Shown here: positions 10,195 to 29,537 of the stretch, one piece after another
Numbering within the stretch: the first letter of the stretch is position 1
Layout of the letters: every line of letters begins with the position of its first letter
From: Amoebophrya sp. A120
Lineage: Eukaryota > Protista > Dinoflagellata
Length of the DNA stretch: 64,000 bases
Assembly (NCBI GenBank): GCA_905178155.1
Contig: CAJINV010000003.1
Coordinates: 3,317,600 to 3,381,599 of the forward strand
Reading direction: 5' to 3'
Notes under the pieces: generated by a model
The model's database searches: none
Seen by the model: the letters and a program-made list of their open reading frames with translations, nothing else
Told to the model about the DNA's origin: nothing
Made by a program: the position numbers and the translations under genes

Positions 10195-12535
10195 GCGGTG
10201 CTCGGCGCAGCTCCCTCCTCCGACGCGCGGCAGGAATAGCCTGCCCTGATACCCTAGGGGTAACGCCGTTGAATAAGGCCGGGCTTTTTTGTCAATAAAA
10301 AATAAAGAAATAGCCACTCAAGTAAATGGAGCCGGCTTTCTTCGGAGCTCTCTAAACTGTAAACGGAACGAACTGAGAGCCGCCCCACCTTGGCGATTCG
10401 CCTTCGCAGCTTGCGGCTTTTTTGTTTTCCCTTTCCCAGTGTTTTGTTTTTTTCGTTCTGCTTGCGTTCTATTCAAGTTTCTTGTTTCATTCTCTTCGTC
10501 ATAAATAAATCGAAAAGTCGCTCCCAAACACTTACTTCTCATCTATGTAATCACGCTGCATTTCTGTTTATGTCCCTGAAAACTTTGAGCCTTATAAGAT
10601 TCTGCAATGCTATCGCTAGATCAAGCTGCTTCTCTTTCTCGCTAACGTTGGTGCTTCTGAACGTGTTTCGCCTGCTCGCAGTGGGGAGTGGATTATATTC
10701 GTTTCATCGAATCCGCCCCAATGGTTAAAGCAAACTGTTTGCGGTCCTAGCGCAGCTCTACTTGATGACGATCTTCTTTTTATGCCTCAGGGGTCCGGCA
10801 ACTTATTGCTACTTTCCTTCGTTGAACACCAAGATTCAGTCTCCTTATTGCTCAAAGCCTCCGACCCCAGCTACCGGCAGCGTAATGGCGAACAGTTTTC
10901 CTATGTAAGCTTGCAGCCCAAGCTCTCGTCGGAAGAGTCGACGTAGTCGTCGTCCCCTTTTACTTGCTCGGTGTCGCCTTCTTCGCCTTCTTCGTGTGGC
11001 CCTAAAAACAGCCGGGTAGCGACTATGGGGGGACAAGAAAGCCATTGGCAATGAGAGCGGCGTTTTTTTTGGGGCCGCATATTTGGGCACTATTTTTGGA
11101 TTGCGTTGTGGCGCTTCGTTGCGGGCGCCAAGACAAAAGGCATGTCTCGGCGTTTCAGGCCGTTTTTGGGCGCCGCTTTATCTTCCAAACCTGACAAAGG
11201 CGCCGCGGCGCTACGCTTGCAACAGAGTGCCCACACGCATGGGAAGCTGCGACACGGGCGAACCTAAGGAGACAAGACGGCTACTGCGCTGCCCCTGAAT
11301 GACAACCCAACCGCGCGGTCGCCCTACACCCGCGCGGTCGCCCTACAGCTGAATTTGGGCTCCCCTTTTCATTTTCCCGAAAATGTCGAATGCGGGAAAA
11401 GATGCACGACTCGCGGACATCACCAGGCATGAGGGTGCGCGCCAGGGCCGGCCCACGAAAGCCTTGCTTGGGAAAATAGCCCACTCGAAGAGAGAGCGAT
11501 GGCGGGCGAGTATTGTTGCACTTTGGGCCGACAGTGCGGCTGCTCCTGGCCAAAAAACCCAACCGACCGACGGCGCCGTGGTTGGCAAGCTCCCAAAAAG
11601 CGCCGCGGCTAGCTTACGAAAGCGCTTGCAAAGACCTTCCCACTCCGGGCTCGAAAGCCGACGCCGAATGCATGGGGGGAGGAATGAAAAACAGACATAG
11701 GGCCAGGTCCTTTTAGTGAATGTGCGGGAGGCTATGGCAAATATGTGGGGTCACACCAGCCCAAATATTCGGAATCAGTGCGGCATACTGAGCATTTGGG
11801 GAGCGGGAGGGGGGGACCCGCATATTCCCTAAAAGGAAAGCAGCGCCGGCGCCAGCAGCCGACGAGCGAAACGAAGCCAACCTGTGGACGGGGCTCACGA
11901 AGCCCGGCTGCTTTCCAAAAAAGCGAGAGTGCCACAAGTATGCTACGCGCGGCGAGCTGCGCGGCCGACGGAGCAAAAACCAGCATCAGGGCAGGGGCTG
12001 TATACGCACGGGCATGACAGGTCGCGCGGCCGCCCTCCTTTTAGCCCCCGGCCAAGCCGACAAAAGCCCGGCGCCCTTTTGTTTTTCGCGCGGGCGCCGC
12101 AAGCCGTAGCCGCCACGACGGAATCGCCCCAGGAGCTAGAGGCGCACGAAGGGCACTCGGCTGTGATTGCAGGTCGCCGCCGGGAAACTGACGGGAGCCA
12201 CGCAGCGCCATGGGCGCTCAGTTCTTTGCACGGGCGTGGAGTGAGAAAGCGGAAAGGCCGGCACCGCAGGAGCCCGCTGCCGACGCCAATAAATATTCTT
12301 CGTGGGCTTGTTATTGTTTGGCAAACCCACTACATTAGCGGCTCCCGGCTTCGGCCGAAACATCCAGAGCCAGCAGTGTTGCGCGTTCATTTCTCAGGGA
12401 GACACATGCCCCTACCTCCAGCGCAAGCAGTAACATTTTGCGTTTTTAGCTTTCACAAATCCGCGAAACCCAAACCCCCCCTCGAATATGTGGGAAGCCC
12501 CTCACCTCGAATATGTGGGCAATAAAAAAAGGCCG
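10195..12535. mobile_element. Degenerate repeat/TE-like or pseudogenised segment
   Basis: No intact ORF. Stop-riddled coding-like relic on minus (GPHEEGEEGDTEQVKGDDDYVDSSDE; KLFAITLPVAG). Short tandem duplications ccgcgcggtcgccc(c)taca x2 (11311-11348) and cctcgaatatgtggg x2 (12480-12519). The adjacent long ORF runs into it. Confidence 0.35.
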
Positions 12536-15293
12536 CTCTCACTGCCGCGGTGCTAGTTTGTCCCCCCATAGACAAACTGGTGACAGCCTCCAAGCCGGTG
12601 GAAGCGAGACTCAGGACATCAAGAAACGGCTTGTCAACCCACTGTCCAATTACCCCATACTCTTCCACTGCTTTTTTTTCACGAGCTAACAACGCGTCCC
12701 CCGCCTTTTCGGGGTTCGCGAGATTAACAATAATGCTCACAACAGAGTCGGCCACCCACGATGCAGCGCCACCTCCGATATCCGAGACTTGGCCCACCGG
12801 GGCCGCGAGGTCCCGCACGTACTCTCCTAGGCCGCTAAAGATAGCCGTTCCAATCTTGCTAGCCGGGATGACTCTGTCCACCAGTTGTGCGAGCACCATC
12901 CCCATGACCCTCTCGAACCACAGGGGGGCGATGATTCCGCTCCCGGGCCCGCTGGACGGGGGCTCTACCGGGATGCACCGCGGCTCGGGTGCGCCATCGT
13001 CGCGATCATCGGTCTGCTGCAGGTCTTGTAGTAAAGTCTTGATGGGTTCCCTCAGGGCCGATCTCGCGACGCAGTCTGCTTGGCGTGAGAGACTCTGCAT
13101 GATAGAAACCCTGTCGCCAAAAAATGCACGGAAAATGGCAGGCAGGGCAGGAATTTGTAGGGATTCCAGCAGGTCGGGAACCTGCGAAATTAGCTGCTCG
13201 ACTTCTAGCGCCACCATGTTGCTGAGCTCCTCGGCGCAAAGTATCCGCTTCGTCCCGCCCAGAGCCTCCTGTCGGAGCTTGTTCTCGAACAAGTAGCGGA
13301 CTGGCCTTCGTATTTTCCTTCCGACCAGTTCCGAAAATATGTTCGGAAGGCGATCCGCTAGCACCATGGGGGCACGGAGAAGTCCTTGCACAAACCCTGT
13401 TATGTCGCCTGCAGTGTTCATCACGTCTTGTGCAATGGCTTCGGCGCTCTTCTTGTCGGTGGTGCTGGTGGCGGAGCTTACAGCGGTCCGCATGATATCG
13501 CCCGCCCTTTTCATCGCGTTCGCCAGCTGTGCGTCGGCCTGGTGTTCACGGCTGCCGCCTTTTTTTCTGGGCAAGAGCTTTCGCCAAACGCTTCTCTCAT
13601 GCGGAAGCCATATCTTGCCGCGTGATGCGCTAGCCCTGGCTTTGCTGTTCTCGGTGTCGCAGCCAAGAAGGTCTTTGATGAATATGAACGCGGGGGCGAC
13701 TTTCTCCTCATACTCGAGCGATCGAATGTACCTCATGCCACGTGCCCGTACGTCTACGTCTGCCAGCCTCTTCTCCTCGTCTGCCTGCTCCTCCTTCTCG
13801 ATGATGAAATCACGACCAAAGAAAACAGGGCGACAATCGCGAGCAGTGCACGTCGACGGAGTGATTTCGTTCTTCTCGTTGTACCGGTGTAAAACTTCCT
13901 CGGAGCATTGCGTTTCTGTGGTCGCGGCCCAACCTGCTGGCGAAAAACCGGCCAGTTGGTCTTGCAGTAGCTTGATGACACCCACATCCCCTTGGCCTTT
14001 TTCACTCCCGTCCTTGTTGGCATCTTGTGCGAGAAGCTTTAGCAAATCGCGGAGCAAATTGGGCCCGCCGGCGCCGTCCTCGTCTAGCAGATTCTCCATG
14101 ACGCTCGCCGCCTTGTTGCGCTCGTCCGGCTTCCGCTTCACCGGGAAGGTCAGCGGCGGCCCACCAAAACGCGTTGGGCCAACTTTCCCCGATGCCACAT
14201 ATGTGAAGTAGAGGAAGACATCCTCCACGGGCACGGCTTTTTGAAGGTGCTCCTCCGGCTGCGGCTTCACCTTGGACTGCTCCAAGATTCTACTCCGGCT
14301 TCTGTCTTTGGCTGGGGGACTCGTCTTGGAGCTCGCCAAGCCAGCGCGCGTAAACCCGACCTTTTCATCCCCGAAGAAGATCTTGCGCGCATGCGCGACG
14401 CCCTCACTACTTAAGTCGGGAGGGAACTTGCACTGCTTTGCTGCGACCTTGAGAAAGTCGCACTGTTGGCAATCCTCTTGCCCCGCAGCATGGTCCCCCT
14501 GGAGTTCCGTTAGCGACACCCGGCTTTGTTCGCGGCCCCCGTGAAGCTCCTTCTGGGCATCCCTTTTGCTGGCGCCGTCGTTAATGGCCCCGCTATTCTT
14601 TACCATTTGCGCTAGTTTCTGCTGCTGTTCATCCAGAGCCTTGCCAGCGGAAGTGCCGGAGCGAAGCCGCACGGTCGAAACACTCGACGCCTTTGCTGTA
14701 GCCGAAGCTCCGCTCCTCCTGTCCAGACTTTCGGTAGCCGGGGATGGTCGTGGTGGCGACGCGTCATCTGCAGTAGTGTCCGACAATTTCTCGTCTGTCC
14801 TCTGTGCCGCGTGATTTTTGGCTGCTGTAGCTGCTGCTCCCAATGCGTTTTCTGCTGCAAAGGCTCTGGCTTCTTCGGTCAATTCATCCTCGGCGGGACG
14901 TTGCCGCCTGCTGGGCTTTGCAGTAGCGGCCGCTGGACGAGCAAAAGCAGCGGTGGAGGTTGTAGACGAATCGTCGCTGTTCGGGTCGTTGGAAAGGGAG
15001 GGCATGTGTCGGGGACCGGCTTGCGAAGTTGCTTCCTCTTGCTGTTTCTTGGGGCGAGCAACGGTCTCGGTCGTAGTTCCCACAGATTCACGCCCACCCG
15101 CTCCGTTATCGCTTTTTCCTTGCGAATCTATCAGCCACGAGAACCACTCGCCGGAGTTCGCAGTCCTGGAGGAAGACGACGAGGAACTGAAACTCATTCC
15201 CCTCTCAAACCCGTAGGCTTCGCCGTTCGCGCGGTTTATGGCAACCACCACAGCCGCACCTCCGAGGATAACGAAGGGACACACTTGGCCCAT
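12453..15293 (-). CDS. Hypothetical intronless protein with signal-peptide-like N-terminus (3' part of the 1917-aa ORF)
   Basis: ATG at 15293 gives MGQVCPFVILGGAAVVVAINRANG, then an S/T/A-rich region and a helical globular region. The C-terminus runs into the repeat block at ~12535. Confidence 0.5.
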   Translation of the reverse strand: MGQVCPFVILGGAAVVVAINRANGEAYGFERGMSFSSSSSSSRTANSGEWFSWLIDSQGKSDNGAGGRESVGTTTETVARPKKQQEEATSQAGPRHMPSLSNDPNSDDSSTTSTAAFARPAAATAKPSRRQRPAEDELTEEARAFAAENALGAAATAAKNHAAQRTDEKLSDTTADDASPPRPSPATESLDRRSGASATAKASSVSTVRLRSGTSAGKALDEQQQKLAQMVKNSGAINDGASKRDAQKELHGGREQSRVSLTELQGDHAAGQEDCQQCDFLKVAAKQCKFPPDLSSEGVAHARKIFFGDEKVGFTRAGLASSKTSPPAKDRSRSRILEQSKVKPQPEEHLQKAVPVEDVFLYFTYVASGKVGPTRFGGPPLTFPVKRKPDERNKAASVMENLLDEDGAGGPNLLRDLLKLLAQDANKDGSEKGQGDVGVIKLLQDQLAGFSPAGWAATTETQCSEEVLHRYNEKNEITPSTCTARDCRPVFFGRDFIIEKEEQADEEKRLADVDVRARGMRYIRSLEYEEKVAPAFIFIKDLLGCDTENSKARASASRGKIWLPHERSVWRKLLPRKKGGSREHQADAQLANAMKRAGDIMRTAVSSATSTTDKKSAEAIAQDVMNTAGDITGFVQGLLRAPMVLADRLPNIFSELVGRKIRRPVRYLFENKLRQEALGGTKRILCAEELSNMVALEVEQLISQVPDLLESLQIPALPAIFRAFFGDRVSIMQSLSRQADCVARSALREPIKTLLQDLQQTDDRDDGAPEPRCIPVEPPSSGPGSGIIAPLWFERVMGMVLAQLVDRVIPASKIGTAIFSGLGEYVRDLAAPVGQVSDIGGGAASWVADSVVSIIVNLANPEKAGDALLAREKKAVEEYGVIGQWVDKPFLDVLSLASTGLEAVTSLSMGGQTSTAAVRAAFFYCPHIRGEGLPTYSRGGLGFADL

Positions 15294-18200
15294 GCGGCAA
15301 ACCCAACTACCTATGTTGGGCTGTGTTTTTGGTAGTCGTTTCGTGCTTGTGAAAAAAATGATCGCGCCCGCAATGAGCAACAGAACTAGCTGAATGCCTG
15401 GCGGGGATGGAGGATGCGCGATCCCAAAGATGGCGAGCGATTTCTCGCCGGCTGTCGACTCGTGGGAGATCAACGGCTTTCTCCCGCCGGCTGTCGACTC
15501 GTGGGAGATCGATCGACCATCCGACGCCTGCCGCAAGAACGGCGTTGTGGGCCGGCTTTCGCCTCCGGAAAGAAGCGCAGCTGCTGCGCCGTTCCTATTC
15601 TCGTTGCCGGAGTCCGCCGTGGAGAACTCGATGTCCTGGATCTTGCACGGAATCTCCACCAAGTCTGCGGATACCTTCTCCACCGGCTGGAAGTGCACTA
15701 CGATCTTTTTCTTCGATCCCGGGGGCACGTGACCGCAGGACGGAACAAACTTCAAATTCGGAGTACTGGAGCTTTCGGCCGCCTCGGCGGACAACGCGAA
15801 CGGCGCAGGTAGTGTCTCGGGAAACTCGAGCTGCGCCGTTTTCTTGCTCCCGTTTTTGAGGTAGATAATCTGCTGCTTGCGGCTACCCACCGGAAGTTGT
15901 CCGATCCCGAGCTCATCCGGGGGCGCGGGTGGCCGCACCCCGGCCTGACGACCGCCGTCTTTCAACGGATATGGTGGGTCAAAGGGTGAAATTTCTGGCG
16001 ACAAATCCAAGTCCAAAAGCTCGTCGTCGCGGCCGGACTGGTTCATTAGGTCCCAACACACCTCTTGCACGTAGCCCTCGCCCTTCAATGCAAGCGTCAA
16101 GTCTTCGAATGGGTTGTGGATTGTGAACACCCGGAACTTCTGCAAGAAGTAGGGGAGCTGTACGCCGTCATCCGGCAGGCTGATGTCACACGGGTGGAAC
16201 TTTGTCGTGAACTGGTAGTGCTTGCCCGGCTCCAGATTTATCGTGCGCGGACAGATCACGGAGAAGGGCGGAATAGTGTCAGTGACTGCGATGCCTTCCT
16301 CGTCCAGGATCTCGCAGCGTGCCGTCGCGGGTATGATCCCGTCATTCTGCTGCAGGCGGAACCGAATTTGATGCTCGCGACCGAGCTGCAGCTTGCCAAA
16401 ATCAAACTGTTCGTCTGTTAAAGCGCGCATCTCGAACGTCAAGTAGTTGCTTCGGTGGTCTGTTCCAGTTCCTTTGGTGAACTTCGCCTCGAATATTACG
16501 TAATACGTCTGCAACTGCGGTGGGGTGAGCGACACGGTGACGTACCAGTGCTCGTGCGGCGGAATGACCAGCTGCGCGGGATGGATTTCAAATGGAAAGT
16601 CCTTTTCGCCTGCCGCGGATCGCGGTTTCACGCTGATATTGACCTCACATGGAATTCCGCGCGGATTCGTGATTCGCAGCCGCTCCTTCTGCGGTTCTGC
16701 CCCGCCGGCGAGACAGGGACCGAAGCTGAAGACCTGATCCTCCTCCGCGTAGCAGCGGATATCCACCCGACCGGCGGTGGCAAAGGCGTCCTCGAGGTTG
16801 CGCGCGACGTACTGCTCTTCGACGAGGGAATCTCGAATCGAAAAATTGTGCTTCGACAGCTTGTACGCCTCGTCGCGGTCGAAATCACGAACGATCTGCG
16901 GCGAATACACAATTTGCCGCATCGAGGGCTGCGGCAGCCTCGGGTCCTCGGGCACGCGTGGTGCGGGCATCATGTCCTCGTGGTCCAGCAGCGCAGCCCG
17001 ACTCTCCTTGTCGTACGGAAGCGGGTACACCGAAACCAGGTGGAAGTGCTGAAACTCCATGTTTAACAACACGGAATGCTGGCTGTGCGTGGGCGAGCTG
17101 CCGTTGCTGGATTCCGCTCCTTGGGACTTGTTCCTAGCCTTCGCGCCCGCTTTCGTGGCGTGCCTCTTCTGCTGCTCGGGCGCCAGCTTCTGGAACTCGG
17201 CGTGCTTCACGGCGTTGACTGGATGGATCGTGTCCGCAATCAGCTGCCTGTGGAAGTCGAAGCACTTGGGATTCGCGGGCACATTGATCTTGTTCTTCAA
17301 AATCTCCAGCTCCGCCTTGCCGGCTTCCAGCCGCTGCTGCAGCACCGCCAGATCGCCTTCGTCCCCGTGATCTTCATCCGCCAAGCTGGTCTGCACTTTC
17401 GTTTCCAGAGCCGTCATTTCGGCCTGCAAACTCTCCGCGTCCTTCTCGATCTCGACCTGCCGCGAGTCTAAAAACGCGTGGAAATCGGTCTCAAACACCT
17501 CAATGTGCTTCGCCTCCTTCGCTTCCTCGTCCAGCTCCTGGTCGGCGACCTTGTTTTGAACATCCGCCCCGCCCGCGGCACCCGCAACATCTCCTGGGTT
17601 GTTGTCTGCTTCGTTTCCCGACATGCCTCCGGTGTCCTGCTTGGGAGAGCGGTGGCTCGGTTCCATCAGGAAAAACCGAACCCGCTCGTCGAGGAGGAAC
17701 ATCACCTGCAAAGCGCTCTCCGGAGTGAGGTATTCGATGGACGCGTCGAAGCAGTCGAGGATGAAGCCGGTGTTGAAGTCGCACAGCGCGAGCCGCTTCT
17801 TGACGATCTCTGCAACCACTTCCGGGTCCAGGTCGTAGATCGGGAGCGCAGCCGCGACGTCGTCGTCGGCGGGGGGTTTGATGTCGTGCGACAGGAGGAT
17901 GCTCTTGTGCGCGATCTGCGCCTGGTACTCCGCTTTCGCCGCGGGATCCGTCTGCCACAGTTGCTCCCGCTCCGTCATCGTGGCCCGCACCTTGTCCACG
18001 AACTCCTCGTCCAGCAGGCCCTTCGCGCTGCTCGACACCGCCCAGTCCACGCACTCGTCGTTGGAGAGAAAGCCCCGCTGGTTGACCGCCGCGCGAATCT
18101 GGTTGGCCCACTTCGTGTATGAGAGTGCACAACTCCTTCTCCCCCTCATTTGCATGGAATGAATAGCAATACAAACACCAGCAGACGTGGAGCCAGTGCA

Positions 18201-19689
18201 TGACAAGTTCCTGACTAGTGTAGTACTGTTTCAGCTTCCGTACTTTGTCAACATGCAAACCGTGCCACAAGGAACCAACTGGAATTGGGATTTTGCATGA
18301 CAAATGAGGAAGAGGGGGAGTTATGCATACTGATATCGTGCGCCCGGAGCGCTGCGGCCCGTGGATCACCACGTTCTCGCGGAACTTCTGCGGCACCCGG
18401 TTCGGGAACTTGTCCTCCTCCAGACCCAGATCCAGCATGGCCGAAACCTTGTAGTCGTGCTCCGTCTTGATCACAGGCTTCTGGCACATCAGCGGCTTGA
18501 TGTTTTTCGGGTCCTCCCAAAGCCACCCCCCCCCCCCACAGCCACAGGTAGTAGTCGTTCTGCTCCTCCATGGTGGAAATTTCGTCCGGGAACCACGCCC
18601 ACGGGAGCTTGTCCGGTTCCTCCTCGAGCTCCTCCGGGTCCAAATTCTCTCCTTCAAGAACAGCCACTCGCTGTGCCAGAATTCCTGCACCTTCGTCAGG
18701 AACTGCTTCTGCAGCTCCGCGATGGCGATCTCCTTCTTGCCGCCCGTCGTGTTCATGGCGTTCGTGTCGTTGTCCTGCTTCTTCTGCAGCAGCTCGTCGT
18801 CGTGCTCCTGCTTCCGGGCCAATCGGGCGTCCTGGTGCTCTTTTCGCTTCTGCTCCTGGTTCCACGTGTCGATCACGTCGGGCCACGTCACCGACATGTC
18901 GGACCGCAACGAAAACTCGGAGTACTTGTAGAGCGGGTCGTGCTCGTAGATCTCCAGCATCTGCTCCTCAAGCCGGTACTGCTTGTCAAAGTCGGTGCTG
19001 TGGACCGTGATGGGGTAATCGTTGGGGTTTTCCAGGTAGATGCCGCGCAAACCTCGCGACGGAGTAACAGGCAAAGTGCATGTGCGAGCGTTGAAACGTC
19101 TGGCGGCCCAGCTGCAAGTGCGGTATAGGTATAGCAGTCGTCTATACGAGTATCGGGCCGACTGTCGGTGCTTCTTCTTCTGCATTTCACGCTTCCGCGC
19201 AACAAGCTTCCACTCGAGGCCACTGAGCGGCACATTGGAAGGAAGGTGGAAATCGTATACATCACCGAGGACGATAGTTCTGCTTCTGTCGCGTACAGCT
19301 TGGTGTTGGCGGGTTGTCGCGACGTCTGGACGCCCCCGGCTGTCTCGCCAAGTGTACGCATCCACACACGCGAAGAGGTCAACGGGATGGTGGTGGACAC
19401 AAGATAGATGTACTGCCAGAGTTGCGATGACGCACCAAAGTGCGGTGTCGCGCTCACGCTTCCACAATTTCGATGCAGACCTTTGACCGGAGAGGGCTGC
19501 ATGGATAGCGCGTCGGGGAGCACGGTAGGAATTTCCCATGCAGAGCCCCCGCCATCTGCAGTGAAGAAAAACCTTGGCCGAGCTCCACCAAGAAAAGAAT
19601 CTCATCGTCATCTGCCAAATCACCCAGCTGCAGGGACGAGGAAGAAGAAAATCCACTTCTGGACCATCTTCGAATTGCAAGGCGGACAC
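15294..19689 (-). CDS. HYDIN: HYDIN-like central-pair protein fragment (P-loop/adenylate-kinase-like region plus ASH/Ig domains), interrupted by an introner
   Basis: ENPNDYPITVHSTDFDKQYRLEEQML, VVIHGPQRSGRTKWA (after introner removal), IVKKRLALCDFNTGFILD, FSFGPCLAG, NPFEDLTLALKGEGY, FVPSCGHVPPGSKKKIVVHF resemble HYDIN blocks. Only part of a full-length HYDIN is present. Confidence 0.7.
15441..15510. repeat. 39-bp-period tandem duplication at the HYDIN/unknown-protein junction
   Basis: cgccggctgtcgactcgtgggagatc occurs twice (ISHESTAG x2). Confidence 0.8.
18118..18335. mobile_element. Introner/MITE family A (218 bp) in HYDIN-like gene
   Basis: TSD tcgtg both sides. TIR tatgagagtgcacaactccttctccccctcatttg ... 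caaatgaggaagagggggagttatgcatactgata. Removal restores GPQRSGRT-KWANQI. Confidence 0.92.
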
Positions 19690-20533: not shown

Positions 20534-22186
20534 TTATTCCGCGCGAAGGGACGCTCGAGTGCCGGACTGGCAGCCTTCCATGAAGCCAACGCGGATGCTT
20601 TGCACGGCACCAAGAACTTGCTCGGTGGGCACGCTCTCGGCTGCGTGAACCGTCTGTGCCCGAACTTGCGCGAACCTTTCCGGATCGTAGACCTGTGAGA
20701 TGCATTTGTTGTGCTTTTCCATCTCCTGAAACAAATTTTGGGTCAATGCTACGCGAGAGGCAATCGCTCGGCTCTACGATTACGAAAGAGTAACTCATAT
20801 ATATGAAGTGCAGAGAAACTGTGTTGCTAATACCGCCACGCCTGCTGTGCCGACCACCGCTAGGATGATGAGGAAGATGAGCCACCAGATCATCCCGTAC
20901 AGCAGCGGGACAAGGAAGTAGGAACCGAGGATCAACAAAACGACGTCCAAGTGCAGGTGCTTGTCTTCTGGGACACCCATTTGCGAGTACTTATCGCGGC
21001 GCTTGTACATCACCACCGTGTAAGCGTGGCCGAGCATCTGGCCCTGGTTTCGCAACATCGTTTCTGCCATTTTGAGGAATTGGTTTTTTGTGTTTGTGAA
21101 TGCAATGCAGCGAATGATATGATACACGAGGTAATGAGAATGCAGGTATGTTCGACGGTAAGTTCGGTTATCGTTGTACTTATGTCACACAAAAAGAAAC
21201 AAGAGCGACGAGGTTGTGCGTGGAAGGTTTTTCCGACACTGGAACCTGCGCTGAGAATTGGAATTTGGTAGCGACATCGCCGACAATTTTGAGAATCCGG
21301 ATGATGAATGAACTCACCGATTTCAAAATGAATCGCGATGTTTTATTCACCTGCCTAAGTGCCGATGCTGTCATATGTGACATTCACATTTGTCTATAAC
21401 ACTTTTTCACCGATGATGCAGTTATTATGTGTCCTTGACCGACTTAGCTGGCTGGTGACTGTGAGGGATGCGCACCACGAATGGCTTCGGTCACGGACCG
21501 AGAACTATGGACCGATATTGCACGATACATTTCTGATGTATGTACTCCTGCCGAGTAATTGACGTCCGGTACAGCGAACAAGGTACTACATCGCGGTAGA
21601 TTTTTTCCACTCAAAAAATGTCCCAATACTGGCTATTGCTTCAAGTAGACACACACTCTCTTGCAAGTAGCACGGTTCCTACATTTCGATTTTTTTCACG
21701 TCCTTCTTTTCAACAGGTCGAAGAGTGGGATGGAGTGCTTGTCTCGAAATGCCATGTATCGAAAGAAAAAAGTTTGTCGCGATCACTCATGGGCATTTTT
21801 GCAATACAAAAAATGCCTGTCATGCGCAAAAATGCATCACAGCCAAACTTCATAAGGGATTTCCCTTGTGTTTCTGCAATGCAAGGAAAAGCTGTGATGC
21901 TAAAAAAATTTGTAATGCAAAACTTCCAAGGTAGTGACTGTGACAAACTTTTTTCTCTCCATACCATGTACAGGAAGGGCACTATCACCCCTGCACCCAC
22001 TATGAGCACGCCCAGGAGCCATCCTCCGTAGTGAAGCCGCGGCGTCAACAACGCTTTTTCGTAATCCATTTGCTCCGCGACCGTGTGATTGGAGGAAAAA
22101 TCATACGCCGTGCGCCCGTGTGTTGCGTTTAGGCCTCGTCGGCGACATTGATTTTGTTGTAAAAAAAGCAAGAACGCACGACACCT
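20534..22186 (-). CDS. Multi-exon hypothetical membrane protein(s); structure not resolved
   Basis: Coding-like blocks with TM segments (GWLLGVLIVGAGVIVPFLYM; VVLLILGSYFLVPLLYGMIWWLIFLIILAVVG) and a terminal block TQNLFQEMEK...RAE*. Internal exon joins are uncertain. Confidence 0.4.
21757..21963. mobile_element. Introner/MITE (207 bp)
   Basis: TSD ccatg. TIR tatcgaaagaaaaaagtttgtcgcgatcact ... agtgactgtgacaaacttttttctctccata. Removal gives PFLYM-AFRDKHSIPLFDLL. Confidence 0.85.
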
Positions 22187-22669
22187 GTAGGAGACTTCAG
22201 AGTACTATGATGAGTAAGCTAAGATTAGGGTCACTCTCACTTCCAGGTAGACTCACTATCGGAGTTTTCGTGTGATGACCATAGAGACCAAGAAGGATCC
22301 AGATTGGTTTCCTACCATATTGCGCCACCAGTGCAGCCGCCAAGAGCAGAGAAATCGTTCTTCGTTCATACTAACTCCATCTTCGACAATTCTTCTCAAT
22401 ACGCTGAGCTTGTACGTAGCGCGATCGAGTGCATGAGCAAGAACTTACGGACAGAAATATTTTGTAGTTGAACACAAGCGCCTCCGCCGCACTTCGTCTT
22501 GCAATGTGAAGATGCCTCAGTATTGTGATGATTTCCAAGCGGTGGTCCAGCTACCAGCTAAATCTTTCCGTAGTGGAATGATCGTTTCGGAAGTGTCAGG
22601 AAGTTTGTTCAACGAAAACACACAGATTGCGAGTGGCTCGAAATAGCACATCAAGAGCACTTACTTACA

Positions 22670-25600
22670 TCAGTCGCTGTCTATCGGGGGGTGCTTTAAC
22701 CTTATCGCATCATCCTCAGATGATGAACAAAAGTCCATGGGAATGTCGCTATCGTTTTCAGGAATGGGATCGAGGGCCGAACCAGGGCCGCGGATGTCAA
22801 ATAGCGCCCCTGACTGCTGGACGCGCGTCGGCTTTCTGTCCTCGTCAAGGCCGGGATTGGCAACGATCGGCGTTTCTGATGTTGCTGCTTCTTGTCCGAA
22901 AGCGGCCACCACATTGCAGCTGTGCCCCGTCTCTACTTCTTCGTTTTCGTCGGTGATTATCCCTGTCGTGTCGCTCGTGTCGCGCGGTACAGCGGGGCCA
23001 CATTCGATGCGAAATATGTTCGGGTCATCTAGCATCGAAGTGGATGTAGTTGAGTTTAGCATTAGCGCGCCGCTCGGGAGGTCTTCGATTGCAACGCCGG
23101 CTTTCTTTGCCTTTTGCGCCGCCTGGACGCTGCCAGCCTTTTGTTTTCCCTTCTTCGCTTGTTCTAATCCCGCTCCGTGCTCGCTCTGCGCGCCGCCCCT
23201 TCCAAGAAACTCGTGGCGAAACATGACACGCATCTGGGTAGGAGGTACTACTGAAGAGCTACAGCTGCTTCCACTGGGGCCGACTCCGCTTGCCGGAATA
23301 CTTTTTGCCTTTTGTTTCGGTGCCGCAGAGGCCTTGTTCGATTTATTGAAGTTCGTGTTCGGCTTATTCACCGGCTCCGGCTTTTCGGATTGTTTGGACC
23401 GCAGCCACAAGGAAGAGTTGTTACGCCATCCCCCGAGCCCCGGGTGACCGGTGTGTCCGAAGTAGCGCGTACATCCGTGATCAAGGTACAGCTGCGCCAT
23501 CGCGTCGGAGAGGCGCGGGCCGATTCCAAGACCCTGAAACTCGGGCAATATTACCATGCGCGTCTCCCGACAGCACGCCTTGTTGAGACCCCTCCCGCAC
23601 TGCACCGATGCGCCGTAGAAGGCAACGCTCTGGTTGGATGTAGCGTCTCGAACCAGAAAGCTCTGCATTCCCTTCGGGAGACCAGGACGTAGGTAATGGT
23701 GCTTCTCAAAGTGATCTTTCCAAATCTTCTCTACTTTGTCAAATTCTGTCGGAAGCGGCTTGACGACGAAGCTTAGCTTCGGCGCGGCAAACAGCCGCAC
23801 TTGTTCCGGGTCGTGTATGTGTGAAGTTTCTACCTCACCAGACTCATGTCGTGCTTTATTTCCATCGCGAGCGTCACCAGCGAGATCTCCGTTGAGAGTT
23901 ACGTTTACCCCGTCCTCCGGGACTTGTTTGGCCCCAAAGCTAAGTTTTCTGGATTTGCGCGGAGGAGATTGGTGTCCATGATCTTGAGCCACTGGCTTTA
24001 TGATTTCAACGTCTTCATCGGAATTACCAGGCCCAGGGCGCTTCTTGGCGTTGTGCTTTACAACTGCTTTTGCACTTGCGAGATTCTCCCCCGCAAAGAA
24101 TGGATCCTGCAGCACTTCGAAGTCCTTCTCGCGCTTTGCGCGAGATAAATCGGACCGAATAGTTGATGGCGCTTTCTTTTGGCTGCTGCAATAAAAGTCA
24201 AGAGACCTTTGGGTGCCACCTCCGGTCACTTCGCGCACCTTCTGTGCGCTCTTAGTTCTTGCGACTTGTATTTTGTTTGTAGATTTCTTTTCCGAGAAGG
24301 CCCTTGCACTCGCTTCGGCTAGCACAGGATTCTTCCTCTGCGAGTCCGCGCTGGGAACCGAAACGCACCCGCTGTTCGTATGCAGAGCAAAACTGGGCCT
24401 CAGCCAATCGACCACGTCTTCGTGCACACCCACAACCAGCAGGCGCAGTTTACCAAAAAATCCCCCACGAAACCACTGCGCGAGTTGTTTGCAAACATGT
24501 TCTGCGCGGGTCCGACTCAGCAGAGAGGTAAACTCGTCGATCACGAGTAGTGGGGTCGGTTCTCCGTCGCACGCGGGCGTTTCGTCCACTTCTTGCGTCC
24601 GCGGACAGTCACGAACGTGCTGAAAGAGGCACTTGGCCAAACGGATGCACTCGCGATCGGCTGTAGACAAGGACCTTGACGCTACGCTAGACTGCAGTAC
24701 GCGGTCGGAGAGACCCAGAACGGACTGAAGAAACTGTCGCTGGTTCTCCGTGAACCCCCCGTCATCGGTAGGAAAGAAGTCACGGACAAGTTGCCCTCGT
24801 GCTGGGCGGCGGTCCTGTTCAACTTCAGACACTTTATCGTCTTGCAGCTGTTCGCTAGAAGCCGCAGGAGAGATTTTTGCACTGGAAGAAGTGCGCGGAG
24901 AAATAACGGCTGCGCTTTCCTCGACCACCCCCCACACCGCGGCTACGCTCTTCTTTGTGCTCGTTTGGTTTTTGGGATTCTGAAGGTCCTTCAAAAGCTG
25001 GGTGACTGCCGTGGTCTTCCCGGACCCGCTCGGCCCAACAATTGCTGCGATGTCCTTCCACTTGGTCGTCGGTTCCAGCAGCTCGTGACTCACATTGAGG
25101 TACTTCAAGCTCGTGCTGGTTTCACCGTCAAAAGTCAGTTCAAACGCGGACGCAGCTGCGGCCGTAGCGCTGTCCGTGAGCACTTTGTGCTGCAAAGTGG
25201 CGTCTCTGACAGTCGGTTTCCAAAAAACGTCCTTGTAGAACTGCCGACCGTGCGGCTGCATTTTGCCGGCTTTGCGCAAATCTTCTGCGTGGTCAGTCTC
25301 GACTGCGTCCCATCCACCAGGCCCGGTCGCGATCATTCGCTTCATACAGGCTACATCAAACCTGTACTGGGGCTTCTGAATGCTGGAAAAATGTGGATCG
25401 TGTCTGCGAATCACCCGGGCAGCTGCACACGTTATTGTAGCGTCGCCGTCGCTGATCTTCATGGGACTACACAACGGGGTCGCAACTACTTCCACACAGA
25501 AGTCTGGCTGTAGGTACTGTGCGCAACTTTTTCTATCGCAACAAACGACGACGCGCCTCACCTGCAACATAGTAGCCAGCTTCCGTAACCCCGCCGCCAT

Positions 25601-26368
25601 GGCTTTTGCCGTCTGCTCGTCCACGGTTGCCGCAAAACTGGGGATGATGCAGCTGCTGCACAAGCGAGCGGCAAGCTGTGCCCGGCTACGTTCCCCATTG
25701 GACAGGCAGGAAAAGGGCCGCAGCCAGGAGGGAATTCGATTCAAGCCGACAGAAGCGAGCCGCTTTATTGCCTCTGCGTCCTCCGGCTTGGTGTTGGTCG
25801 CGATTCCGCTTGGTGGAGTTTCTTTCTTCTCGACCTTCGGTGGTCGCCCCCGCTTCATCGGCTGCTTCTTTCGCGCCCCGGCAGCTAACAGTGTTTCCGC
25901 ATCAGCAGCTGCGTCGAGAATCTCGGATACGGAATCCTCAAAGTTACTGCTCGCCTCCGCCATGCCGCTCACCTCGTGGACAACAACACTCGCCTCGGGC
26001 CTATGATCAGACGGACGAGGGGGCTTTTCCCTTCGGATTTTGTCGGCCAAGAGAGAAACGATCGCACGCGGGCCGTCAACGTCATTCTCATCGGTGAAGA
26101 AGTCGCTGCTGTTCAGATCCAAAACTTTGAAGGTGGGAAACTGCCACACCGCAAAGGACTTTGCGCCCTCGCCAAAGACGAATGCGAGGTCGAACTCGTC
26201 TGGCGGATCGCCTTCCAAGAGCCGAAACTCGGGCGCTGGAGGAACCTCCTGCGTCATTATTTTCATCTCCTCGCGGCCTTCCTTCGTCGTCGCCATGATA
26301 CGGGCGCTACGAAAGCCGAGACCGTCATTTGTTTTTTTTCGATCGTGGTCGTGCACAATGAATCCCAC
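22670..26368 (-). CDS. Intronless tandem ABC-ATPase + GNAT acetyltransferase fusion (phage/bacterial-type, Mom-like GNAT)
   Basis: 1232-aa ORF. NBD1: IPSWLRPFSCLSNGERSRAQLA ... YLQPDF. NBD2: GPSGSGKTT, LLVIDEFTSLLSR, VVGVHEDVVDWLRPS. GNAT: WKDHFEKHHYL, RETRMVILPEFQGLGIG, YFGHTGHPGLGGWRNNSSLW. Confidence 0.8.
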   Translation of the reverse strand: MGFIVHDHDRKKTNDGLGFRSARIMATTKEGREEMKIMTQEVPPAPEFRLLEGDPPDEFDLAFVFGEGAKSFAVWQFPTFKVLDLNSSDFFTDENDVDGPRAIVSLLADKIRREKPPRPSDHRPEASVVVHEVSGMAEASSNFEDSVSEILDAAADAETLLAAGARKKQPMKRGRPPKVEKKETPPSGIATNTKPEDAEAIKRLASVGLNRIPSWLRPFSCLSNGERSRAQLAARLCSSCIIPSFAATVDEQTAKAMAAGLRKLATMLQVRRVVVCCDRKSCAQYLQPDFCVEVVATPLCSPMKISDGDATITCAAARVIRRHDPHFSSIQKPQYRFDVACMKRMIATGPGGWDAVETDHAEDLRKAGKMQPHGRQFYKDVFWKPTVRDATLQHKVLTDSATAAAASAFELTFDGETSTSLKYLNVSHELLEPTTKWKDIAAIVGPSGSGKTTAVTQLLKDLQNPKNQTSTKKSVAAVWGVVEESAAVISPRTSSSAKISPAASSEQLQDDKVSEVEQDRRPARGQLVRDFFPTDDGGFTENQRQFLQSVLGLSDRVLQSSVASRSLSTADRECIRLAKCLFQHVRDCPRTQEVDETPACDGEPTPLLVIDEFTSLLSRTRAEHVCKQLAQWFRGGFFGKLRLLVVGVHEDVVDWLRPSFALHTNSGCVSVPSADSQRKNPVLAEASARAFSEKKSTNKIQVARTKSAQKVREVTGGGTQRSLDFYCSSQKKAPSTIRSDLSRAKREKDFEVLQDPFFAGENLASAKAVVKHNAKKRPGPGNSDEDVEIIKPVAQDHGHQSPPRKSRKLSFGAKQVPEDGVNVTLNGDLAGDARDGNKARHESGEVETSHIHDPEQVRLFAAPKLSFVVKPLPTEFDKVEKIWKDHFEKHHYLRPGLPKGMQSFLVRDATSNQSVAFYGASVQCGRGLNKACCRETRMVILPEFQGLGIGPRLSDAMAQLYLDHGCTRYFGHTGHPGLGGWRNNSSLWLRSKQSEKPEPVNKPNTNFNKSNKASAAPKQKAKSIPASGVGPSGSSCSSSVVPPTQMRVMFRHEFLGRGGAQSEHGAGLEQAKKGKQKAGSVQAAQKAKKAGVAIEDLPSGALMLNSTTSTSMLDDPNIFRIECGPAVPRDTSDTTGIITDENEEVETGHSCNVVAAFGQEAATSETPIVANPGLDEDRKPTRVQQSGALFDIRGPGSALDPIPENDSDIPMDFCSSSEDDAIRLKHPPIDSD

Positions 26369-26960: not shown

Positions 26961-29537
26961 TCATTTCGCTGCGCCTGCGGGGAGGTATTTGTCGAGTTTG
27001 CTCTTTAGTGCCTGTGCGATTTCTTTTTCTCTCGGGCCGTCGAGCTGACAGTCGCGCCAGTCCGACCGGTCCATGCAGTCCAGGCCCGTGCAGATGACGT
27101 CGCGCGCGAAGTTCATGGGTATGCGCCCCGGGCCGTAACACACGTAGCGATCGATCTTTTTCCCCTTTGCCGTGTTGTCCCCCGGCAGCTCCAGATAGAG
27201 GTAGGTCATCTGTAGGAGGCTCTGCAAGTTCCTCTCCGGTTCGTTCGCGAAGAAGCGGTTGGCGTTCTGGCTCAACAACTTTGGCAGCGCGGTGCTGGGC
27301 GGCTTCGCGTCGCCGTAGGGGTCGACCACGTGAGTACTAGTGCCATCCTGGTCAGCACCTTCCGGCTGCCGCCCCGTTTCAGGGTCGATGATGACGCTGC
27401 CCAACCGCTCGAACTCGAGCCCGTTCTGTTCCGCGAAAAGGTCCAGCGTGCGGGACCAGTTGACGTACCGCGACCGCGGGATGGGCAGCAACTGCACTTG
27501 CATGTGCGCCATCTTGGTCGGGATCCACCGCTCCCAGACGACCATATCGCAGGGGTCGCGGTTGGTCCGCGGGTCCAGAAACATCTTGCGGATGGCGCTG
27601 ATGTATGCATTGCAAAAGCAAAAGTATCGCACTCGTATAAATGCATTACAAATTCTCTCAGCATGAGAAATAAAATTTGTAATGCAGATTTGCCTTGGGA
27701 ACAAGATTTGTAATGCGAGACTTGCATTTATACGAGTACGATGCTTTTGCACAGGATATGATGTAGGTCTCGATGGAGTCCCGCAGCTGCTCGTACTCGG
27801 TGAAGTTGAAAATGCTGAGGTAGTTGGGCATGTGCTTCACGGGGCAGAGAATCATGTTGCCCTCGTTGATCCCCCCCTTCGCGGTGGCCACGTACAGGTG
27901 CGGGTTCACGGCCACCAGCATGTGGCGCTGGAACTTCGGGTTGGCCAGGCAAAACCAGCAGTCCGCGTGCGGCTCCACGACGATTTTCTTCCCCACCTTT
28001 TTCTTTGCGAGGAGGACCTGCTCCTTCTTCTGCAGATCGTCGTGCTCGCGCTGCCGCTTGTAGCTGATCTTCACCGTGCGGCCCCCGGCCTCCAGCTCCA
28101 GCTCCAGGGCTTTTTCCGCCAGCTCCTTCGACACGACCGTGGCGAACCCAAAGCCCTTACACTCGCCGGTCCTCTCGTTCACCATCACCTTGAGCCGCAG
28201 CAAACTGCCGCCGCCAAGTGCGCGTTCCAAGGCGGAGCGAAGGTTCTGTTGTTAGGGTATTTAAGTATTTTCCTTATTTTCGAAGGAGGAAATTTGCAAG
28301 GCTCTGAGCCGATAAGATGCAAAAGAGTAGCTCGAATGAGTAGAAGATCAATTTTACTAAACATCCTTTATTTGACGACGTGATTGCCGCTGGCCTGCTA
28401 CTAGCTAGCAGCAATGATGGAAAACGAAAATGAAAATCAAGGAACATGAAGCTAAGATACGTTTTCTGACAAACCGGCGGTCAAATTGCTGAGGAACAAC
28501 TCCACCCCCTCGGGCTGGTCGTCCTCGTCTCGCCCTCGTTTTTGCCCCCCGTCGCCGCTGCTCACGTTGTGCTGCAGTCGCTGCAGTCCTTGCAAACTAT
28601 CGCCCGCGAGGTTCTGGAACGGGAACGGCGTCGTGTTGTCTGGCTTTGTTCGCAACTCGTCCGCGGTCATCGCCCGCAGGGGCCGCAACTGCAGGGCGTG
28701 CAGCCACTTTTTGTCCTTGCCCTTGGCCCCCACTTTGCCCAGCGCGATCAGTCTCGATACGTGCTGCGCCTTCAATGTTTGGAAGGGGGGGCGCTGGTAG
28801 AACGTGTTTCCCTTCGCGCAAACGACATAGCGCGGTGCCAGGGCGGCGACCAGGTCCGAGATCGCGGACGACTCGATGTCGCCTTCCCCGACGGGCTCGA
28901 CGTCCTGTAGGTTCGGCACTTGGTCGTACACCTTGTTCTGCCACCCCTTCGGCCACTCGGAACACAAAAGCACATCCACCCCGGTTTGCCCGAACTCGTC
29001 CGCGATTTTGCTCTGCCGCTTCAGCTGCTCGACGGCCAGGCGCGTGTAGCAGGCGCCGTGGAAGGGAACGCTCTCGTCCTCGTAGTACACCGCGTTGTAG
29101 CGACCACTGAGGTACGCGACCCGCAGGCCGCCCTGGATCGTCTTCACCCCGTGGGAGCCGAGAAACACGAGTCGCTTGGTCGCTTGCGGCAGGGAAGAGG
29201 ACGTCGAAGAGGAGCTGGAGGAGGCGGAAGTCCCGGTGGAGGAGGCTGCCGCACCGAACTCCTTGCCGGCGGCGAAGCCCTCGATGAACCGCTCGCTGTC
29301 CGAGTCCACGAAGTAGGTAGGGATGTTGGGCTGCTTCAACCCGAGGAGGTACTGCTGGTTCTCCTCGGTGATATCCTCGCCGAGAAAGGAGCCACAGGCA
29401 AGCAAAAGGTCGAAGTCGCCCACGCGGGCCTGCTGCTTCCCCACCGTGTCGAACAATGTCGTGAAGTTTGCGTTCGCGTCGCCGGCGAGAAGAACTCGCT
29501 TGGTCAGATCCTGGTCCTTCTTGCTTGAGTCTGCCAT
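26961..29537 (-). CDS. CWF19L1: CWF19-like protein 1 / Drn1 (pseudo-metallophosphoesterase + RRM + CwfJ C-terminal domains)
   Basis: VLLAGDANANF, FDLLLACGSFL, PTYFVD, GLRVAYLSG, VDVLLCSEWP, FYQRPPF. RRM: LFLSNL ... KGFGFATV. CwfJ: CWFCLANP, AKGG, PVKH, WER, HMQVQLLP, NFARDVI, DRSDWRDC. Exons 29537-28461 (GT-AG intron follows), 28245-27759 (introner follows), 27598-26961. Confidence 0.9.
27604..27758. mobile_element. Introner/MITE (155 bp) in CWF19L1
   Basis: TSD tgatg. Long TIR (tgcaaaagca...tcgcactcgtataaatgca / tgcatttatacgagtacgatgcttttgca). Removal gives IETYI-SAIRKMF. Confidence 0.92.

Follow-up and report, generated by a model that had tools for sequence, protein, structure and literature searches.

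Gene model and transcription

We analysed a 64,000-nucleotide stretch of the genome of the dinoflagellate and likely parasite Amoebophrya sp. A120 (contig CAJINV010000003.1, positions 3,317,600 to 3,381,599; hereafter the window), and specifically a minus-strand gene at 22670–26368 whose product joins ABC ATPase domains to a GNAT acyltransferase domain. The reading frame is uninterrupted for 1232 codons counted from a GTG, which agrees with the intact 3.7-kb open reading frame (ORF) described in an earlier, sequence-only reading of this DNA. The first ATG is codon 25. The gene and the parts of its product, all on the minus strand, are as follows.

22670..26296, minus strand: coding sequence from the first ATG at 26296, 1208 amino acids; open upstream to the GTG at 26368
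22463..26365, minus strand (strand inferred from the ORF): transcribed region, from contigs of the runs that show splicing of neighbouring genes
25481..26206, minus strand: ABC domain 1 (ABC1), about amino acids 55–296, from family profile and motif alignment
24350..25204, minus strand: ABC domain 2 (ABC2), about amino acids 389–673, from Pfam, family profile and motif alignment
23369..23785, minus strand: GNAT acyltransferase domain, about amino acids 862–1000, with His891-Tyr892, Arg937, the coenzyme A (CoA) loop PEFQGLG and TGHP
23693..23698, minus strand: His891-Tyr892, predicted catalytic pair, aligned to H58-Y59 of phage Mu Mom and in register with the His-Tyr (HY) of TmcA/NAT10
25835..25855, minus strand: AT-hook-like basic motif, amino acids 172–178, within an insert of ABC1

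Counted from the GTG, the motifs begin at residues 213 (PSWLRP), 222 (LSNGE), 611 (DEF), 649 (His), 890 (HHYL), 937 (Arg), 942 (PEFQGLG) and 973 (TGHP). The Ameob2 protein P0003 of Amoebophrya is homologous from about residue 55 onward. The public model of the gene (P0002; 976 amino acids; 22670–25600, minus strand) starts at Met257 and leaves out most of ABC1 together with its signature motif, and its start was probably mis-called. The highest 19-residue Kyte-Doolittle mean is 1.22, so that no transmembrane segment is predicted, as the sequence-only reading had also stated.

Transcript evidence came from contigs of four runs on one sample, presumed to be RNA, in which the introns of neighbouring genes have been removed. 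These contigs cover 22504–25575 and 25879–26365 without skips. Because the same runs splice the neighbours and leave intergenic bins uncovered, the window gene is transcribed and is intronless across nearly its whole length, which answers the earlier expression check and upholds the claim of an intron-free gene. None of the listed long contigs bridges 25576–25878, so an in-frame intron could formally lie there. In a run that is possibly the source of the assembly itself, one DNA contig (22300–27632) carries both the gene and the final exon of a CWF19-like gene, at an even depth (44.3, compared with 43.3 for the next contig). The G+C content at third codon positions (GC3) is 0.61, and nine other ORFs of the window span 0.51–0.90.

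Domain architecture and ATP sites

For domain assignment, a family profile of 144 full-length phage and prokaryotic members was used. The profile matches the window protein in four pieces (amino acids 196–296, 389–475, 605–673 and 880–1015; E = 5.9e-72); Pfam gives ABC_tran (E = 2.8e-7) and a weak Acetyltransf_1 match (E = 0.002). The architecture is ABC1-ABC2-GNAT, with two ABC domains. The earlier description of one ABC domain fused to a GNAT was right as to the fusion and wrong as to the single ABC, as the first two ABC motifs that it quoted, WLRPFxxLSNGE and DEFTSxxxR, sit in different domains. AlphaFold modelling of amino acids 25–1023 gave three folded domains with disordered linkers between them (mean predicted local distance difference test score (pLDDT) 63, predicted template modelling score (pTM) 0.65); the compact Gymnodinium smaydae homolog P0008 gave a better model (mean pLDDT 77.6, pTM 0.74).

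Each ATP site of an ABC protein is composite: one domain supplies the Walker motifs and its partner the signature. ABC1 has a degenerate Walker A motif (FGEGAKS), has lost Walker B (IIPSF) and lacks the switch His, with the PSW and LSNGE signature intact; in ABC2 Walker A (GPSGSGKT), the Walker B DE (611–612) and His649 are intact and the signature is changed (LSTAD). Since all the lost parts fall in the same composite site, the window protein is predicted to have one working and one dead ATP site. The 91 homologs with two ABC domains and a GNAT (here called twins) show the same trend in milder form. The catalytic Glu is found in 29 of 90 ABC1 and 85 of 91 ABC2 domains (144/144 in prokaryotic domains), the switch His in 32/82 and 73/90 (142/142), and the signature Gly in 88/89 and 71/86 (144/144); the Trp before the signature is present in 85 of 86 ABC1 domains versus 20 of 83 ABC2 domains.

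No membrane helix of the kind expected in an ABC transporter is fused to the domains, NCBIfam Walker A matches were weak and far under their cut-offs, and PADLOC gave Walker A matches only. In the Protein Data Bank the single protein had no relative by sequence (best E 0.086), and profile searches there returned generic ABC and GNAT chains only.

Family membership, distribution and descent

The match of the window protein to phrog_11143 (E = 1.5e-57) extends over four stretches that cover both the ABC and the GNAT parts, and on this similarity we assign the protein to PHROG 11143, the ABC+GNAT family of phages and bacteria. The sequence-only reading had proposed the same family from six motifs; all six are in the translation, and the match is far beyond chance. 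Of the two ABC domains, only ABC2 retains the Walker A motif, the DE of Walker B and the switch His that mark the family; the GNAT carries HHY, RxVxLPxxQGxG and TxHP. The single ABC domain and the length of about 350–400 amino acids that also mark the family are not found, two ABC domains being the eukaryotic variant. The top phage match is Tenacibaculum phage pT24, and phage homologs in general share about 33–37% identity over short stretches. In PMC7824862, pT24 is named for a GNAT and ABC ATPase system whose predicted role is acylation of a DNA nucleobase, a role that is given there for the phage and bacterial family as a prediction only; in the sequence record, presumably that of the accession quoted there, the phage gene is split into two ORFs.

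Several searches, one of them (alignment A1) dominated by ordinary ABC transporters, yielded 164 homologous proteins: 91 twins, 67 with one ABC and a GNAT, and six without a detected GNAT. In scans limited to the best 80 loci each, all 163 phage, viral and prokaryotic loci had one-ABC ORFs of 203–538 amino acids. Of 30 proteins looked up, 11 bear the name of a eukaryote, almost all of them dinoflagellates: Amoebophrya Ameob2 (two proteins), Amoebophrya A25, G. smaydae (four), Cladocopium goreaui, Pelagodinium beii and Polykrikos kofoidii (one ABC detected), together with the foraminiferan Nonionella stella. The cluster of protein P0010 includes a partial protein tagged as an archaeal metagenome-assembled genome, on a 1.2-kb contig. 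This label is probably a binning error, because near metagenome relatives of P0010 (L304, L313, L314 and L315) are broken by intron-like gaps; twin genes in other eukaryotes likewise carry introns. No twin form was found in viral contigs (the A1 scan covered 6 of 64 parts, P0114 gave no match and P0010 gave three single-ABC loci), which is not proof of its absence, and matches in the ESM Atlas were confined to viral GNAT clusters without a name. P0114 itself is a twin ABC-GNAT on a 140-kb contig that may come from a eukaryote or a giant virus. The accessible portions of PMC4738411 and PMC10853773 contain nothing on the ABC+GNAT family, and a literature search whose scope did not take in two likely key works (Iyer et al. 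2013 and a 2020 ABC-ATPase classification) gave no description of the eukaryotic twin form.

For phylogenetic placement, an unrooted LG+G4 tree of ABC2 plus GNAT was computed from 40 of the 91 twins and 30 of 144 prokaryotic and viral rows, chosen for spread; this 70-row tree replaced an earlier 302-row FastTree in which the row of the window protein was 37% filled. The twins all fall on one side (Shimodaira-Hasegawa-like approximate likelihood ratio test support 97). Ameob2 P0003 is the sister of the window protein (98), within a five-row group that includes all named Amoebophrya rows (90), and this group is sister to one with Gymnodinium and Cladocopium rows (96). In a tree of single domains, ABC1 domains group with ABC1 (98) and ABC2 with ABC2 (96), so that the ABC duplication is older than these lineages; the backbone of that tree is not resolved.

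The gene tree fits descent within dinoflagellates, and the window gene belongs, as one copy among several, to an old family. A single entry into eukaryotes, with a phage or bacterial donor, probably preceded the split of Amoebophrya from core dinoflagellates; the direction is suggested by the patchy eukaryotic and wide phage range, as the unrooted tree gives no root. A recent transfer from a phage or bacterium into the Amoebophrya lineage, or a contaminant, could be argued from the missing intron and from the identity to phage homologs. It is very improbable and already largely refuted: the closest relatives are Amoebophrya proteins, forcing the window protein into the phage and prokaryotic side is rejected by the approximately unbiased (AU) test (p = 1e-4), transfer into Amoebophrya only, with the five-row group forced to the prokaryotic side, is marginally rejected (p = 0.04), GC3 lies inside the range of the window, and the gene is transcribed and linked to a spliced eukaryotic gene. 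The intronless state is weak evidence for transfer, because only 67–71% of Amoebophrya genes are spliced (PMC7789003) and other twins have introns. The sequence-only reading saw a candidate for horizontal acquisition; a recent or lineage-specific one is not supported, nor are the phage, bacterial or giant-virus neighbours that it expected, the best matches being eukaryotic twin-ABC proteins. It had also named vertically inherited eukaryotic hits of known function as the counter-case; the hits are vertical, but none of the relatives has a known function.

The GNAT domain compared with Mom and TmcA/NAT10

Among the 91 twins, the HY pair is kept in 85, the β4 Arg in all and an intact CoA loop in 90. 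The window protein has no match to the Mom family profiles PF25680 (E ≤ 0.1) and phrog_1384 (E ≤ 1), on which Mu Mom as a control scores E = 2.4e-75 and 7.8e-84, respectively; our own Mom profile reached a best E of 0.01 against the 144 family members. By these comparisons the window protein is not a member of the Mom family. E. coli TmcA matches the Pfam families for its helicase-type ATPase, PF13718 and tRNA binding, and the window protein matches none of these.

Profile-profile comparison was carried out by hhalign with 12 Mom, 17 TmcA and, as a control, 15 RimI rows. The N-terminal half of the GNAT aligned to the Mom profile with a probability of 49–70% (E 4e-5 to 2e-4) and placed its HY on Mom H58-Y59, compared with 3–9% (E 0.004–0.015) for the RimI control. 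For the whole GNAT, TmcA was the best profile match (93–96%, E 1e-8 to 3e-7; RimI 73–80%), with the similarity located in the β4/CoA-loop half. HY is present in 17/17 TmcA and 12/12 Mom rows and in 0/15 RimI rows; one mistranslated TmcA row was dropped between the first and the later TmcA comparison. The significant Mom alignment stops before Mom S124, D149, R151 and Y159, and the family keeps PxxQGxG. The family profile found nothing against a single Mom sequence (0.1%), so that a Mom profile is needed, and the Mom and TmcA profiles did not align to each other (E 0.69). The Mom relation claimed by the sequence-only reading therefore holds as a distant link, from the N-half alignment and the com slot of relatives described below, and fails as family membership.

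According to published work, Mom H58A and Y59A are drastically reduced (PMC13219725), NAT10 H548 and Y549 are essential (PMC13433802), and Mom uses Gly-tRNA as donor and has no canonical CoA loop (PMC13219725). By the HY link, Mom, TmcA/NAT10 and the ABC+GNAT family may form one group of base-acylating GNATs. A Mom-like gene of Microbacterium phage Pickles13 (L212:85-777) is flanked by ParB-like and tRNA-Gly genes, the latter fitting the Gly-tRNA donor of Mom.

Gene context of phage and prokaryotic relatives

In phage Mu the tail genes are followed by com and then mom. In the Mu-like Burkholderia phage phiE255, an unannotated Com zinc-ribbon ORF was found (L002:4278-4583; PF10122, E = 5.7e-16), and the order is tail genes, Com ORF, a small gene, ABC-GNAT and a formyltransferase. 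Com-like ORFs also lie upstream at loci L078, L053 and L061; a Com pattern search gave upstream hits at 3 of 153 loci versus 0 of 615 control windows, to which Pfam adds L078. Phage relatives can thus occupy the slot of Mom behind com in Mu-like phages. Among 76 flanking ORFs at 39 chosen loci, 26 have a Pfam match, mostly to ParB (four), RusA (three) and terminase subunits (three); further matches are to primase, helicase, polymerase, clamp loader, C5 methylase, dCMP deaminase and dUTPase. The gene context favours DNA as the substrate in phages, short of proof.

At 8 of the 163 prokaryotic and viral loci the next gene downstream encodes a formyltransferase; three of these loci (L002, L061 and L078) also have com upstream. 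Together with the Mom-like N-half of the GNAT, this arrangement would suit an acyl group other than acetyl, with a formyl or aminoacyl mark on DNA nearer to Mom chemistry. We consider such a mark improbable for the window protein: the CoA loop that Mom lacks is intact in nearly all twins, a Pfam search of the genes flanking the window gene gave no formyltransferase match, and formyltransferase-linked phiE255 falls in a branch far from the eukaryotic one.

Accessory parts of the eukaryotic relatives

The AT-hook-like motif occurs once in the window protein, three times in P0003 and twice in P0009, the latter two being Ameob2 paralogs. The label is one that we presume from the residues, with no profile match behind it, and the motif is predicted to be a DNA minor-groove binder or a nuclear signal. 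It was found in 7 of the 91 twins, with 10 cores versus 3.3 in shuffles. A scan of 50 twins for accessory domains, in part of which the five best families were listed, gave single relatives fused to a chromodomain or to a Strawberry-notch helicase; in P0066 (P. beii, 2734 amino acids) the twin ABC-GNAT is joined to a full Strawberry-notch helicase-like module. Overall, the signal from accessory parts leans towards the nucleus but is mixed. In P0013 (1075 amino acids) a single ABC-GNAT unit is fused C-terminally to a family A DNA polymerase.

Proposed function and alternatives

Taken together, the results suggest an N-acyltransferase of nucleobases that is driven by ATP and depends on acyl-CoA, with DNA as the probable substrate, an assignment that we hold with slightly less than even confidence. 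Nucleic-acid modification, which the sequence-only reading had proposed, is retained as the likeliest role. The ancestor, with one ABC and a GNAT, would have worked as a homodimer, and duplication of the ABC in an early eukaryote would have placed the ATP sandwich in one chain. The single active composite site would be formed by Walker A, Walker B and His of ABC2 with the signature of ABC1, the other site being without Walker motifs. ATP-driven closure could grip or open the duplex and expose a base, comparable to the role proposed for the helicase domain of TmcA/NAT10. His891-Tyr892 and Arg937 would then activate the exocyclic amine of the base (cytosine N4 or adenine N6) for attack on an acyl-CoA, probably acetyl-CoA, held in the QGLG loop of this soluble protein, and basic AT-hook-like tails could hold the enzyme on nuclear DNA.

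Several results weigh against this assignment. The Mom alignment spans about 45 columns at middling probability; the TmcA HY is in register with that of the family, and the HY half alone is not significant (E 0.06–0.22); Mom S124, D149, R151, Y159 and the helix-turn-helix (HTH) insert have no aligned counterpart in the family. Among prokaryotic neighbours, 50 of 76 have no Pfam match, and the substrate in phages need not be that in eukaryotes. Most of the 50 scanned twins showed no accessory domain, one relative has a WWE and another a UBA domain, and P0117 carries a fused RMKL-like RNA methylase domain (E = 8.7e-10). No biochemistry for any family member was found in the reachable literature. 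In a fold search with the whole-chain model, the first GNAT matches were ordinary small-molecule and protein acetyltransferases (GNA1, Z 10.6, root mean square deviation 3.7, 130 aligned; Naa50, Z 10.0); Mom and TmcA fell outside the top 50 of 48,161 chains in this whole-chain search, and the twin-ABC fold resembles the ribosome factors ABCE1 and ABCF. The GNAT matches are tied at Z 9–10.6 and show the fold only.

TmcA as the best GNAT profile match, ABCE1, EttA and other ABCFs as top twin-ABC fold matches and the methylase domain of P0117 could instead point to ATP-dependent acetylation of RNA bases: the protein would then be another writer of the NAT10/TmcA kind for tRNA or rRNA, with a twin ABC that acts on ribosomes or ribonucleoproteins in the manner of ABCE/ABCF. 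This seems unlikely. The likeness to ABCE/F stands at 11–18% identity and follows from both having two ABC domains, the window protein matches no helicase or tRNA-binding family of TmcA, and most Pfam-matched prokaryotic neighbours have roles in DNA replication, nucleotide metabolism or packaging, while some family members sit in the com-mom slot. Acetylation of lysines or N-termini in chromatin proteins or other proteins bound to DNA, in which the two ABC domains would remodel the complex that is targeted, is also unlikely. The canonical CoA loop, the chromodomain of one relative and the fold matches to Naa50, NatC, RimI and Hpa2 (Z 9.6–10) would suit it, but the listed Z values lie within 1 of each other and carry fold information only, the RimI profile scores under TmcA and lacks HY, and the near-invariant HY and β4 Arg are common to two base-acylating families.

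If the protein is a DNA base acyltransferase, a wider proposal may be entertained, although we think it doubtful as a whole: that dinoflagellates and several other protist lineages have domesticated a phage-type enzyme that writes an acylated base so far undescribed in DNA (N4-acyl-cytosine or N6-acyl-adenine). In this view a twin-ABC motor within one chain, in which a single ATP site is live, would feed a GNAT intermediate between Mom and NAT10, and each genome would have several paralogs. Dinoflagellates have odd chromatin and virus-derived nuclear proteins. If the main assignment is right, the window gene would be a candidate for the enzyme behind a mark on DNA bases that has yet to be described in dinoflagellates and would be new among eukaryotic DNA modifications, and the prediction for the phage ABC+GNAT family would be testable through H891, Y892, R937, K451 and E612. 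The prokaryotic ABC+GNAT family and its predicted role are already in print; added here are expression, dinoflagellate-wide descent, the pattern of one live site, the shared HY pair and the replacement in the com slot.

Genes around the window gene

By Pfam search, the adjoining ORFs are eukaryotic in kind: CWF19-like, hydin/CFAP65-like and Cluap1. The CWF19-like gene (26961–29537, minus strand) has three exons and CwfJ C-terminal domains with an RRM-like segment inserted. A 1917-amino acid ORF (12453–18206, minus strand) is hydin/CFAP65-like in its first half and has no Pfam match in its second; it may represent two genes, or exons joined by read-through. Two introns of neighbouring genes (27599–27759 and 21752–21964) are non-canonical and high-copy, with 7-nucleotide boundary repeats and terminal inverted repeats, and are spliced in the presumed-RNA contigs; in the DNA run, coverage of the former is very high. 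Both resemble the Amoebophrya introners described in PMC7789003.

Comparison with known systems

With the phage and prokaryotic fusion of PHROG 11143, the window protein shares PSW/LSNGE, DEFTS, H-DxxxWLxP, HHYL, RxVxLPxxQGxG and TxHP, the domain order and the lack of a transmembrane segment. The eukaryotic form differs in its two ABC domains, one dead ATP site, long low-complexity linkers and tails, absence of operon partners and length (1208 versus about 370 amino acids). Phage Mu Mom has in common the GNAT fold, the aligned N-terminal strand-helix-HY-strand-strand and, by eye against R111, the β4 Arg; in contrast to Mom, the window protein keeps the acyl-CoA loop, has an ATPase and is without the C-terminal active-site residues and HTH insert. 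TmcA/NAT10 (PF13718, PF05127) likewise combines an ATPase and a GNAT in one chain, with RxxV.P..QGxG and, in register though not significant by itself, a His-Tyr before β2, whereas the ATPase of the window protein is ABC-type instead of helicase-type, it has no tRNA-binding domain and its context points to DNA. ABCE1, ABCF (EttA) and UvrA share two ABC domains per chain, no membrane domain, asymmetric sites and association with nucleic acid; they have no GNAT, identity to them is only 11–18%, and the cassettes of the window protein stem from a separate duplication of a phage-type ABC. The window protein may work like Mom or TmcA but belongs to neither family.

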